Part shown: positions 54,835 to 59,344 of the stretch, piece by piece
Layout of the letters: every line of letters begins with the position of its first letter
How positions within the stretch are numbered: the first letter of the stretch is position 1
DNA from: Dictyostelium discoideum
Lineage: Eukaryota
NCBI GenBank assembly: GCA_000004695.1
Contig: CM000151.3
Location: 2,432,001 to 2,496,000 of the forward strand
DNA: 64,000 nt
Reading direction: 5' to 3'
Notes under the pieces: generated by a model
What the model was told of the DNA's origin: nothing
Database searches by the model: none
Seen by the model: only the letters and a program-made list of their open reading frames with translations
Position numbers and translations under genes: made by a program

Positions 54835-57800
54835 ATGAATTTTAATTTTGAACAAATTTTAGAATATAATTTTGATTTTAAAAAGTTACATAAAAATAAA
54901 TTAAAAAATAATAATCTTTCAGAAAATGAAGACGACTATGCAACTACTGTTATAGAATGTTTAATTCATTTATGTGAAGTTATACCAACCAATAAAATGT
55001 TAACCTATTCAATGGATTATTTAAAAATAGATGATTTAAATCATACAGAGAAGGGATTATTATTATTATTATTATTATTATTATTATTATTATTATTATT
55101 ATTATTATTATTATTATTATTATTATTATTATTATTATTATTATTATTATTATTATTATTTATTTAATCTCTAAATTATTAATATCAATTATGGATTAAT
55201 ATATAGTGAAATTTTAATGAATGATTTAAAAGATTATATAGATATTATAAAAGATCCAAAAAAGTTCAAAAATTGTGGTAATCTTATAGTTTTAATTTTT
55301 AATAGTTATAGTGGTGCAAATAAATTTATAAGTTGTTTTTATGAATTTATGAATGAAAGATTTATTGAAACATTAGTTTTAGAATTTTATGATTTAATGA
55401 CAACTGATAATAGTAAAGTTACAACCGGAATATTTGATCAATTCTTTTCACTTATTAAAAAATCTGATATTATTTATAAATCATTTTATGAATGGGATTC
55501 AAATATTCTAGAAAACAGGTTTATCTTTAAAAATAATAATAATAATATTGATGGTGATGATGATGATGGTAATGAAGATGATTATTTTGGACGTTTCTCA
55601 ATTTTATCAATATTAGAGGATGACAATTCACATATAATTTCAAATTATTTCAAATTTACAAATTATGAAAGATTAGAAGATCTTTGGATTATGATTTGTC
55701 ATTATCAAGCAACTGATATAGCAAAAGCTCTTTTTAACTTATATTATGACAGTAAAGAAGATTGTATTAGTGTATTTGCAAGTGATGATAATAATAATAA
55801 AATTTCAATATCAATATTAAGAATTTTAGAAATTACTTCTATTGAATTTTCATTGCCCGTTTTAACTGTTATTGTGGAAAATACTCCAAATTTTTTAAAT
55901 TCAATACCAACAAAAACTAGTATGCTTGGTATGAAATTTAAATTACATAATAATAATAATAATAATAATAATAATAATAATAATAATAATAATAATAATA
56001 ATAATAATAATAATAATAATAATAATAATAATAATAATAATAATAATAATAATAATAATATTAATAAAAATAATAATGATAATGGTAATGGTAAAGCCGA
56101 AAACATATATAGACTTAGTGGTGATTGTAAAGAAAAAGAAAAGTATGATAATAATTATTCAAGAGAAACAGAAATACCATTTAAAGTATTTGATACCAAA
56201 TTTTTAATAACTACAATGGAATGTTCAGACTATATTCGATTTTTTACCTCAAGTTCAATCATTTTTAATACTGAAGTTAATCAAACTTGTTATGATGATC
56301 TTAAATTAATTCAAAAGAGATTAGGTTTTTTAATTTATAGTAATTCAAATAAATTTACCTATCCTTTTGATTTTTGGAATAATAATAATAATAATAATAA
56401 TAATAATAATAATAATAATAATAATAATAATAATAATAATAATAATAATAATAATAATAATAATAATAATAATAATAATAATAATAATAATAATAATAAT
56501 AAAAATGATGATGATGAATTAGAGAAATTGGTTGAATATAGAAAAGGTTCATTAATATCATTGGTATTTAGCTTTGCTGGTTATAGATTTTTTTCTTCAT
56601 ATATTATTGAAAATTTAACGGGTACAAATATTGGTAATCCAAATTATGTATTTGATATTTCAGAGTTAATGACAGATTTTGAAATAATTAGAGGCCTTCT
56701 TTTATCAAAATATTTTAGTATATTGTTTAAAAGTCGTAAATTTACAGTTCCAACATTAACTAGATCAACATTAATTCCAATATTAATATTTGCATTTATT
56801 TCAAATATTTCATATGATATGAATTGCAACATTGCTAATGTATACCTAAATTATTTATTATTAAATAGAGAACTTTATAAAGGTTCAATTAGCATATCTC
56901 AATTTGGTTGTATTGTAAATTATTTAAAATGTCAGAATGAAATTGAAAAACAGTATTCAGGATGTCTAAAGTTATTAGAGGGTTTATATAATCATAAAAA
57001 AGAAAAATCACCAAATGAACCATATAGAATAGATTTACTTTTTGGTGTGATAAATGATCGTTTGAAAGCTCCAATTTTTATAAATAAAGATAAGTACGAG
57101 TCATTGTATTTCGTTTATCAAGAAGATTATCAGAATCCTTCTGATCCTTTTCGTGTTTTACCAACCAGATCCGTAGATTTGTCTAAAATAAGTGAAGGAA
57201 TATCAAGAATGAAAAATGATGATTTTTTAAATGAATTGGAAAAAGAAGAAAAACAAAAAAAATTAAAAACAAAACAAAAAAAGAAAATTAAGAAATTAGA
57301 AAATGAAAAAAAACAAAAAGTTCTTCAACAAGATAAACAACAAGAAAAAGAAAAAAAACAAAATTATCAACAACCACAAGATCTACAACAACATAATCTA
57401 AAAATACAAACTCAACAACAACAACAACAACAACAACAACAACAACAACAACAACAACAACAACAACAACAACAACAACAACAACAACAACAACAACAAC
57501 AACAACAACAACAATCTCAACAACAACAACAACAACAACAATCACCACAACAACAATCACAACAACAATCACAACAATCACAACAAAAATCACAACAACA
57601 ATCACAACAAAAATCACAACAACAATCACCACCACAACAACAACAACAACAATCACAACAACCACAACAACAATCACAACAACAATCACAACAAAAACAA
57701 AAACATCAAAAACAGCAACAACAGCAAAAACAAGAAAAACAACAGCAAAAACAAGAAAAACAACAGCAAAAACAAGAAAAACCACAACAAAAACAACAAC

Positions 57801-59344
57801 TAGAAAACCAAATTAAAAATTTAAAAATAGAAATTAAAAAAGAAGAAGAAAATAATAAAGAAATTAAAAATAAAAAAGAAGAAGTAGAAAAAGAAAAAGA
57901 AGAAAATAATAAAGAAATTAAAAGTAAAAGTGAATTTATAATAGTTGAAGATGAAGATTTTGTATCAATTGGTAAATTTAAATTTAATAGAAATGAATCA
58001 AATATATTAGGTAGAGGTTCAAATGGTACATTAGTATTTAAAGGTATATGGAGTGATAAAATACCAGTTGCAATTAAACAAATGCAAAAAGCATTCAATC
58101 CACTAATAAATAAAGAAGTTGAAGCATTAATAACATTAACAAATAAAAATTGTTCAAATATGATTAGATATATTGATAAAGAAGAGGATAAACACTTTGT
58201 TTATTTAGGTTTAACATTATGTGATGTATCATTACAATATTTAGTTGAAAATGGTAAATTAAATGAATTCATAAATTCATCAGGTAAATCATTAAATGAA
58301 CTTGCAAAAGATATTATTAATGGTGTTCAATTCCTTCATTCACATGATATAGTTCATAATGATTTAAATCCACGTAATATTTTAACATTATCAACTAATA
58401 AAAATAATAATAATAATAATAAAAGTAATAATAAAATTAAAAGTAATAATAATTCAAATAATAATTCAAATAATAATTCAAATAATTCATTCATTATATC
58501 AGATCTTGGATTAAGTAAAATGGAAGTTGAATCATCATATTCATTTACAACAAATGTACCAACAGGTCAAGGTGGTTATCATCCAGTTGAAGTATTACAA
58601 AGTAAAAGAATGACAAAATCAGTTGATATATTTTCATTGGGTTGTATTTTATTTTATTTATTTACAAATGGTCAACATCCATTTGGTAATGATAAATTAT
58701 TTAGAATTTATAATATAATGTTAAATAAAGTTAATTTAGAATTATTGGGTCATAATTTATTAGCTTGTGATTTAATTAAATCAATGATATCAAATGATGA
58801 ATCTAAAAGACCAACAATTGAAAATGTTTTAAATCATCCATTATTTTGGAATGTAGAAAAGAAAATACAATTCATTGATGCAGCTTTAAACATTTGTAAA
58901 GAATCAAATAATAGTGGTGGTGGTGGTGGTGGTAATAAATTTAATAAATCTTTAAATTATTTATTTGTGATTTCATTATCAAGTGATTATATTGAACCAA
59001 AATCAGAACCATTTTTAAAACAAACATGGGATAAATTAATTGATATTAATAATCTATCAATTGGTTCAACAAGTCAATATCAATATGATCAAATTAAAGA
59101 TTTAATTAGATTTATTAGAAATACAATTGTACATCATAAAGATATTAAAAGATTAATTCAACAACAACAGCAACAACAAAAACAACCAACAATTGAACTA
59201 CAATTCATTAATAATATTTTAACAAATCAAGATTCAATTTTATTTTATTTTGAATCAAAAATTCCAAATTTAATTTATCATTTGTATAAACAATTAAAAG
59301 AATATTCATCATCATTTGATTATTTAATTAAATTTTATAATTAA
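54835..59344 (+). CDS. IRE1/RNase-L-like protein: long unknown N-terminal region, protein-kinase-like domain with non-canonical catalytic loop, and C-terminal KEN domain (Dictyostelium irl-type). Probably 2 exons, 54835-54998 and 55207-59344
   Basis: Kinase motifs GRGSNGTLV (Gly loop), VAIKQM (VAIK), HNDLNPRN (in place of HRDLKPxN), ISDLGLS (DLG for DFG), then [20 protein letters not shown]…[16 protein letters not shown]…[20 protein letters not shown], matching the IRE1 KEN region (HPFFW…FFQDVSD…DLLRAMRNKKHHY…FVCYFTSRFPHLLAHTY). Coding microsatellites (AAT)n at ~55950-56060 and 56385-56510 (poly-N) and (CAA)n at 57415-57515 (poly-Q). The upstream ORF 54835-55167 may be spliced in via donor GTTAAC at 54999 and acceptor ATATAG at 55206 (phase-2 consistent), removing the (TTA)n tract. 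This junction is tentative. Confidence 0.7.
55051..55160. repeat. (TTA)n microsatellite, ~36 units, in the putative first intron of the irl-like gene
   Basis: Seen directly. Confidence 0.9.

Follow-up and report, generated by a model that had tools for sequence, protein, structure and literature searches.

IrlF of Dictyostelium discoideum, a soluble IRE1-type kinase-KEN protein whose HNDLNPRN catalytic loop is fixed across its clade

IRE1 and RNase L both join a kinase domain to a KEN (kinase-extension nuclease) endoribonuclease domain, and their RNase and kinase mechanism is established according to the primary work cited in a 2023 study (Lee 2008, Korennykh 2009, Huang 2014 and Han 2014, cited in PMC10400998). 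In Dictyostelium the IRE family was reported to be 'curiously' expanded to seven members, all with RNase(L) domains, of which only IreA appears to be membrane-bound (Goldberg et al. 2006, PMC1420674). IreA requires both its kinase and its RNase domain for survival of endoplasmic reticulum (ER) stress, and recent Dictyostelium ER-stress papers treat it as the single IRE1 orthologue and leave the IRE-like (irl) genes unmentioned. Here we describe one of these genes, irlF, on the forward strand of a 64,000-nucleotide stretch of D. discoideum DNA (the window; assembly GCA_000004695.1, contig CM000151.3, positions 2,432,001 to 2,496,000), and argue that its product, IrlF, is a soluble multidomain protein derived from IRE1 that rather probably acts as a dimerization-activated cytosolic endoribonuclease.

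The gene consists largely of a single open reading frame (ORF) of 1375 aa at 55217..59344 (+; the end coordinate includes the stop codon), in a region of 12-30% GC with the homopolymer-rich coding style typical of Dictyostelium. An exact-protein look-up of this ORF returned no match. Its translation agrees with that of IrlF (DDB0229362) in Table S2 of Goldberg et al. 2006 (PMC1420674), a tract of 37 Asn included, and this match identifies the gene as irlF and its product as one of six cytosolic IRE1-like (Irl) paralogs. The same table holds a second irlF entry, DDB0217365, described as a chromosome 2 duplicate; AX4 carries a second, identical irlF copy. IrlA-IrlF are all placed there in the family IRE of group Other; the kinase domain of each is rated good and predicted to be active (score 'a'), with VAIK (VAVK in IrlA), HNDLNPRN and DLG as its motifs. 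In the accompanying kinome tree the Irl clade is the sister of IreA. IrlF is therefore already known, as its loop, its DLG, its RNase(L) domain and its missing membrane anchor were all published in 2006. A sequence-only reading that preceded our analysis had assigned the gene to the Dictyostelium irl kinases and called their biology essentially unexplored; the gene proves to be irlF itself, and a search of the literature under the irl gene names brought up noise but no paper about them.

That reading also claimed a C-terminal kinase and KEN module, which both domain profiles (Table 1) and solved structures bear out: with the C-terminal 476 aa as query the top structural matches were all IRE1, yeast at 3e-46 and human at about 1e-42. 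Given that a profile of the Irl clade scored yeast IRE1 at 1e-91, human IRE1 at 3e-86 and RNase L at only 1.3e-28, the module is IRE1-type and does not group with the RNase L lineage. Lack of a significant KEN match had been named beforehand as grounds for giving up the claim, and a Pfam scan of full-length IrlF did return no Ribonuc_2-5A/KEN match at E<=0.1. This miss is an artefact that arises because poly-N/poly-Q low complexity suppresses the score of a real domain; the last 166 aa scanned alone gave 45.8 bits against a gathering cutoff of 23.3, and the KEN assignment stands. Ribonuc_2-5A was also scored by 19 of 20 clade members, each scanned whole, and phmmer against the PDB with only the KEN domain as query gave a marginal result (E about 0.3). 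In the alignment to yeast IRE1, where KYHSSKLMDLLRALRNKYHHF lies opposite the IrlF KEN segment, Tyr1288, Arg1301, Asn1302 and His1306 fall on Y1043, R1056, N1057 and H1061, so that each of the four RNase catalytic residues is present. This tetrad is kept in IrlF and in all clade representatives but two, and its conservation is therefore the strongest argument, at the level of sequence, that RNA cleavage would be the output of the protein. The two exceptions, P0002 and P0035 (both Acytostelium-type), have lost the KEN Arg-Asn...His and kept the HND loop; they may be RNase-dead paralogs or faulty gene models.

A module that is nearest to IRE1 raises the question of whether IrlF is itself a canonical sensor of the ER unfolded-protein response, that is, an IRE1 orthologue. 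Its anatomy refutes this, and we give the idea virtually no credence. Bona fide IRE1 proteins have a signal peptide, a lumenal sensor and a single transmembrane (TM) segment, whereas IrlF has no signal peptide, no lumenal domain and no convincing TM segment (top 19-aa Kyte-Doolittle mean 1.56), in agreement with Goldberg et al. 2006, and carries a long cytosolic N-terminal region of about 920 aa instead. Furthermore, IreA is a separate and bona fide orthologue with HRDIKPHN, a signal peptide and a TM segment. The sequence-only reading was thus right in describing a long soluble N-terminus with poly-N and poly-Q tracts and in denying that the protein is the canonical sensor. What IrlF shares with IRE1 and IreA is the IRE1-type kinase-KEN module with an identical KEN Tyr/Arg/Asn/His set; it departs from them in the kinase, where HNDLNPRN in place of HRDxKPxN amounts to a non-RD loop without the catalytic Lys, and where the P+1-loop Thr is absent.

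An exhaustive HMMER search with a profile of the kinase-KEN module separated the Irl proteins from canonical IRE1. Approximately 28 representatives scored 645-354 bits and were followed by a plateau of canonical IRE1-like sequences at or below 337 bits, with IrlF above the gap. Every high-scoring representative reads HNDLNP[RS]N (HNDLNPSN in one) together with D[LM]G, whereas every canonical IRE1-type match reads HRD[ILV]KPxN. Most members of this clade are 900-1900 aa long with the kinase-KEN module at the C-terminus, and they span Cavenderia, Acytostelium, Heterostelium, Tieghemostelium, Polysphondylium and Dictyostelium; the kinase-KEN region of IrlF is 45-49% identical to that of its Acytostelium homologs. 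Short relatives from Clastostelium and Rhizamoeba transcriptomes carry HNDITPRN, HNDICPRN and HNDINPHN, also with D[LM]G. By motifs and profile scores, the Irl proteins form an ancient clade of Amoebozoa that branched off from IRE1 and has no signal peptide, lumenal domain or TM segment.

Within D. discoideum, IrlA-E resemble IrlF in architecture, in the loop and DLG motifs, in the KEN domain and in the N-terminal motifs NFDLxK, LIxLC, KFxxCF and WxxICxY, while their N-termini are only about 20-30% identical to that of IrlF. IrlB is the sister paralog of IrlF and also lies within the chromosome 2 duplication. Peculiar to IrlF among the paralogs are its poly-N/poly-Q tracts and an Asn/Ser-rich insert in the kinase domain; relatives of the IrlC/D type have a SWIM-like Cys/His motif, and none was seen in IrlF. 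Three observations on other members of the clade may be recorded here. (i) The D. purpureum Irl gene (GL871219.1; L001 7130-9628 + 9806-10750) is annotated as a 249-aa C-terminal fragment only (P0010), and its DNA encodes a full-length protein with one intron inside the kinase domain. (ii) The N-termini of this protein and of P0029 contain a SWIM-like CxC...CxH motif (FFCQCNHFKELQSPCIHFF), and the sole, weak match of a group-4 N-terminal profile in the PDB was a SWIM-type protein (E=0.45). (iii) P0030 (Tieghemostelium lacteum, 1920 aa) has a FACT-Spt16 N-lobe and Peptidase_M24 ahead of its Irl region, and its gene model is most likely fused with a neighboring SPT16 gene.

With regard to the kinase domain, the sequence-only reading had noted the HNDLNPRN loop and the replacement of DFG by DLG, and both were found exactly as described, in agreement with Table S2. 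Its label 'degenerate' did not survive the comparison with the clade. In the structure alignment the HNDLNPRN loop region lies opposite IIHRDLKPQNIL and ISDLGLSK opposite ISDFGLCK, and VAIK is kept. In an alignment of 20 clade sequences the residues that serve nucleotide and Mg binding and some further positions (the G-loop glycines, Lys954, Glu967, Asp1049, Asn1054, Asp1096, Glu1125, Asp1137 and Arg1198) are invariant or nearly so, and the same is true of the residues that make the loop unusual (Asn1048, Asn1051 and Arg1053). Because the loop is kept across all dictyostelid groups, HNDLNPRN is no product of decay; it is a signature that selection has fixed in an ancient clade. The 33-aa Asn/Ser-rich insert, by comparison, is species-specific, the Acytostelium homologs being without it. 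DLG is rejected as a sign of inactivity: DMG occurs in the functional IreA and in many canonical IRE1s, and DLG is therefore uninformative on activity.

The same evidence bears on the notion that IrlF is a redundant paralog drifting toward a pseudogene, with no specific function. In its favor one could cite the second identical copy in AX4, the very long poly-N/poly-Q tracts together with the insert in the kinase domain, and the junction of exon 1 with the intron, where the ancestral donor and the reading frame are destroyed relative to another D. discoideum assembly (see below). We nevertheless consider it very improbable, as an uninterrupted ORF of 1375 aa cannot persist by chance in a genome of 15-25% GC, every catalytic residue of the kinase and KEN domains is intact, the allele from the other D. 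discoideum assembly keeps the same motifs at about 91% identity to the window protein, and homopolymer tracts are ordinary in Dictyostelium coding sequence.

Retention of the nucleotide-binding residues is compatible with more than one kind of kinase domain, and the sequence fits nucleotide binding alone as well as it fits an atypical active kinase. Three positions are replaced throughout the clade, namely the HRD Arg, the catalytic-loop Lys (PKA K168) and the P+1-loop Thr (PKA T201), and in Ser/Thr kinases these three work jointly. One scenario, put forward in the sequence-only reading, is a pseudokinase-gated RNase in which phosphotransfer has been lost and nucleotide binding serves as a structural or dimerization switch for KEN, as in RNase L. 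The clade-wide replacements combined with preserved nucleotide-binding residues would suit such a protein, as would a layout of ankyrin-like region, kinase and KEN, and in IRE1 and RNase L nucleotide occupancy without phosphotransfer can suffice for RNase activation. Set against this are the invariant catalytic Asp, Mg-binding Asn and DxG Asp, which would be unusual in a pure pseudokinase, as well as a conserved set of Ser/Thr/Tyr residues in the activation segment (ESSYSFTT). Moreover, the classical definition of a pseudokinase asks that at least one of PKA K72, D166 and D184 be missing; because the IrlF equivalents, K954, D1049 and D1096, are all present and conserved, IrlF is not a predicted pseudokinase and this standard test predicts activity, as did the score 'a' in the 2006 kinome. 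The Arg of PRN, at the position of the tyrosine-kinase Arg, could also stand in for the missing Lys. The term 'pseudokinase' is thus not established for IrlF, and we regard the scenario as possible, at somewhat less than an even chance.

A second scenario, which we are inclined to doubt, is that IrlF is bifunctional in the manner of IRE1, being an active non-RD kinase, possibly of dual specificity or directed to tyrosine, whose autophosphorylation or phosphorylation of substrates would form part of the signal, with RNA cleavage as a second output. Subdomain VIB in the Hanks-Hunter scheme reads DLKPxN in Ser/Thr kinases and DLAARN (within HRDLAARN) in tyrosine kinases. DLNPRN has the appearance of a hybrid of the two signatures, with the PRN Arg at the tyrosine-kinase catalytic-loop Arg position and the HRD Arg replaced, and the classical catalytic residues are all invariant. 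The 2006 kinome, besides predicting activity, pointed out that Irl members have no Ser/Thr at the PKA T201 position and that tyrosine might therefore be accepted, which was offered as a suggestion only (Goldberg et al. 2006, PMC1420674). On the other hand, Ser/Thr catalysis is commonly lower in kinases that lack K168 and T201 together, and unlike tyrosine kinases IrlF belongs phylogenetically to the IRE family (group 'Other') and not to TK or TKL.

Most of the distinctive sequence of IrlF lies in its N-terminal region, for which the sequence-only reading proposed a novel sensor domain. Several searches of this region were negative: Pfam found no domain in the N-terminal 750 aa, a word-indexed search with the cleaned N-terminus found no homolog, and a first N-terminal profile built on 500-aa paralog excerpts found no match in the PDB. 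A single-sequence AlphaFold2 (AF2) model was unusable, with a predicted local distance difference test score (pLDDT) of 34.8. Negative tblastn and BLASTP results against D. purpureum and Acytostelium proved to be false negatives and were overturned by multiple alignment and hhalign. Aligned with the Table S2 paralogs and the D. purpureum gene, IrlF displays a shared domain marked by NFDLxK, LIxLC, KFxxCF..IE, DNxxxFxLLY and WxxICxY..I. In a 20-member clade alignment conservation is weak but runs consistently through about 600 columns; IrlA-E, the D. purpureum gene and 19 clade members could be aligned, with clade members 12-22% identical to IrlF in this region.

Our evidence for the nature of the conserved core comes from three sources. 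(i) A core profile of 17 sequences and 124 positions matched ankyrin-repeat (ANK) proteins in 28 of its 31 PDB matches, ankyrin-1/2 at 8e-11 and 3e-10. (ii) AF2 supplied with the clade alignment, at a mean pLDDT of 47 for the N-terminus, modelled ORF aa ~128-232 at 59-87 as short helix pairs and a beta-hairpin. (iii) hhalign joined the IrlF-type core, in ANK register, to the ANK-detectable cores of other dictyostelids (probability 76%, P=2e-5). We think it likely, on profile and model evidence that is indirect for IrlF itself, that ORF aa ~125-231 represents degenerate ankyrin-derived repeats, probably about three. The part of the earlier proposal that stands is therefore a domain specific to the Irl family; its novelty does not, as the core is probably made of degenerate ankyrin repeats. 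The second half of the N-terminal region has the clade motifs P..FA....L..LL and LLE, with AF2 pLDDT mostly <55 and no Pfam match. The conserved acidic LLE motif and, behind it, a poly-Lys patch, KKKKxxxxKxKK, separate the N-terminal domain from the low-complexity linker; the Lys/Glu-rich stretch may be a coiled coil, a nuclear localization signal or an RNA-binding patch.

Given that the N-terminal core probably consists of degenerate ankyrin repeats, the analogy with RNase L drawn in the sequence-only reading is closer in layout than first thought: a soluble repeat domain (ANK-like and probable in Irl), an atypical kinase and KEN. It fails for the kinase-KEN module, which is IRE1-type, and the RNase L-like matches P0012 and P0039 read HRDxKPxN and DFD where the Irl clade has HND and DLG. 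The N-terminus of RNase L is roughly 330 aa, whereas that of IrlF extends over ~920 aa. In RNase L, 2-5A is bound by ANK repeats 2 and 4 and the pseudokinase N-lobe; the candidate repeats of IrlF have diverged too far for these binding residues to be traced in them. The RNase L lineage is reported only from jawed vertebrates, and ANK gains in other kinase-RNase proteins are regarded as independent (2023 study, PMC10400998). By analogy, then, IrlF may work like RNase L though it stands outside that lineage.

From N to C, IrlF is composed of the Irl N-terminal domain, a Lys/Glu-rich helix and poly-Q linker, the IRE1-type kinase and the KEN RNase. We favor a model, built on analogy with IRE1 and RNase L, in which the N-terminal repeat domain would sense a cytosolic ligand or partner, sensing would drive nucleotide-dependent back-to-back dimerization or oligomerization of the kinase domain, and kinase dimerization would assemble the composite KEN active site and allow cytosolic RNA to be cleaved. 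Phosphate transfer, if there is any, would be the work of a non-RD kinase with a tyrosine-kinase-like loop Arg. We consider a dimerization-activated cytosolic endoribonuclease of this kind somewhat better than an even prospect, and several points weigh against it. Loss of the HRD Arg, loop Lys and P+1-loop Thr may abolish phosphotransfer, and searching the literature by irl gene name turned up no functional data on an Irl protein. As for the proposed sensor, a profile restricted to IrlF and the sequences closest to it has no ANK protein among its matches, Pfam ANK matches occur in only 2-3 of 20 clade members, Foldseek with the N-terminal model found nothing significant in the PDB, and the AF2 model is of low confidence outside aa 128-232; hhalign of the IrlF-group profile against a consensus DARPin was null as well, a comparison of low power with a single consensus DARPin. 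Finally, because the 5' end of the gene is disrupted in the window strain, the protein may lack its N-terminal 58 aa there.

A bolder extension of the favored model sees in the Irl proteins the amoebozoan equivalent of RNase L, evolved from IRE1 independently of it. The degenerate ankyrin-repeat N-terminus would bind a small-molecule or pathogen-derived signal, the nucleotide-bound HND kinase domain would dimerize in response, and the KEN RNase would be set free to act in the cytosol as an effector of innate immunity or stress. We hold this to be a long shot. A candidate signal would be an oligonucleotide made by amoebozoan OAS-related nucleotidyltransferases, OAS-related proteins having been reported in amoebozoans (PMC10400998). 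If this extension were true, the six paralogs with their fast-diverging N-termini would recognize different signals.

The exon 1/intron junction of irlF differs within D. discoideum. The N-terminus encoded by putative exon 1 is also that of the 2006 IrlF model and of P0020, the other D. discoideum allele, and its motifs are common to IrlA-E. Another D. discoideum assembly, GCA_054859355.1, encodes a protein of 1442 aa (KAM9971852.1), and in a DNA alignment its intron starts with GTATTATT, contains a (TTA)n tract and ends in TATATAG, the acceptor proposed for the window. Compared with this assembly, the ancestral donor region of the window has several indels (GAATGGTATT to GAAGGGATT), as a result of which the GT is gone and the reading frame is shifted; the ancestral GT near 55054-55057 was lost through an indel cluster at 55038-55057, beside the microsatellite. 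The intron of the sequence-only reading (54998/54999 ... 55206/55207) is in frame, is the sole in-frame GT..AG combination there, and holds former coding sequence followed by the frameshifted FKSYREG. Its acceptor is independently supported by GCA_054859355.1, whereas its donor, the ancestral one being mutated, has no such support. Use of exon 1 in the window strain thus hangs on a putative cryptic donor at 54999: either this GT would be used or translation would start at Met 55217. The acceptor of the 2006 model (55305/55306, with the same donor) is less likely, since it skips 33 aa that are coding and conserved in the paralogs, and it is also unused in GCA_054859355.1.

As a discovery irlF is ordinary, the gene and the features flagged in it having been in the literature since the 2006 kinome paper. 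The Irl family nevertheless represents a real gap, being an ancient soluble IRE1-derived clade with an intact KEN site, a fixed odd loop and fast-evolving N-termini. Dictyostelium can be manipulated genetically with ease and serves as a host model for bacterial pathogens, and the family therefore offers a testable case of an IRE1-type module repurposed outside the ER, parallel to the way in which vertebrate RNase L arose. Two practical lessons may be drawn. Low-complexity tracts can mask a clear Pfam domain in a full-length scan (in our word-indexed homolog search the raw kinase-KEN query was likewise swamped by its poly-N insert and gave 8 matches, compared with 10 for the cleaned alignment), and a clade-wide check of conservation is needed before a deviant motif is called degenerate.

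Table 1. Features of irlF and its 3' flank (positions in the window; aa numbers refer to the ORF)
Feature	Position	Strand	Remarks
Putative exon 1	54835..54998	+	54 codons + 2 nt, ending ...CEVIPTNK; Irl N-terminal motifs NFDFxKL, LIxLC
Proposed intron	54999..55206	+	acceptor AG 55205-55206; in frame, from three-frame translation and DNA alignment
(TTA)34 microsatellite in 5' intron	55057-55158		
Main exon	55207..59344	+	long ORF from ATG 55217; EIL before ATG if transcript spliced
Conserved core of Irl N-terminal domain	55589..55909	+	aa 125-231; helix pairs and beta-hairpin
Poly-N tract 1	55949..56059	+	37 Asn; much shorter in allele P0020
Poly-N tract 2	56378..56500	+	41 Asn
Second half of Irl N-terminal region	56501..57223	+	aa ~429-669; mostly helical, weakly conserved
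Lys/Glu-rich helical stretch	57224..57319	+	K-rich patch at equivalent position in all clade members
Poly-Q / QS-rich low-complexity linker	57410..57808	+	
IRE1-type protein kinase domain	57998..58846	+	aa 928-1210; Pfam Pkinase E=9e-32, PDB IRE1 3e-46
G-loop GRGSNGT	58010-58030	+	within kinase domain
VAIK	58067-58078	+	within kinase domain
alphaC Glu	within 58109-58129	+	within kinase domain
Catalytic loop HNDLNPRN (canonical HRDLKPxN)	58355..58378	+	aa 1047-1054
Asn/Ser-rich insert, 33 aa	58391..58489	+	between catalytic loop and DLG
DLG replacing DFG	58502..58510	+	aa 1096-1098
KEN / Ribonuc_2-5A endoribonuclease domain	58988..59320	+	directly C-terminal to kinase; Pfam 8.3e-12 (isolated C-terminus)
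Catalytic Tyr1288	59078-59080	+	
Catalytic Arg1301-Asn1302...His1306	59117-59134	+	
tRNA-Phe(GAA) gene	60015-60088	+	

Downstream of irlF, a second B-box-like sequence, GTTCGATCTC, lies about 30 bp past the tRNA-Phe(GAA) gene (about 60121-60130) and is followed by a GC-richer block that runs to 64000 (26-32% GC, strong GC skew) with minus-strand ORFs, one of which (60298..60984) has a Cys/His motif. A Pfam scan did not identify the element; in appearance the block 60100-64000 resembles the retroelements that are associated with tRNA genes in Dictyostelium. On the upstream side, the ORF at 52199-52996 (-) is an Endonuclease V homolog (Pfam 1e-58), and that at 53605..54048 (-), of 147 aa, has a signal-peptide-like start and no Pfam match; the other D. 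discoideum assembly likewise has a gene call for it upstream of irlF. Further upstream, the ORFs at 40439-41200 and 42613-43374 (-) are both of 253 aa, on the same strand and 2.2 kb apart, and may be a tandem duplicate.

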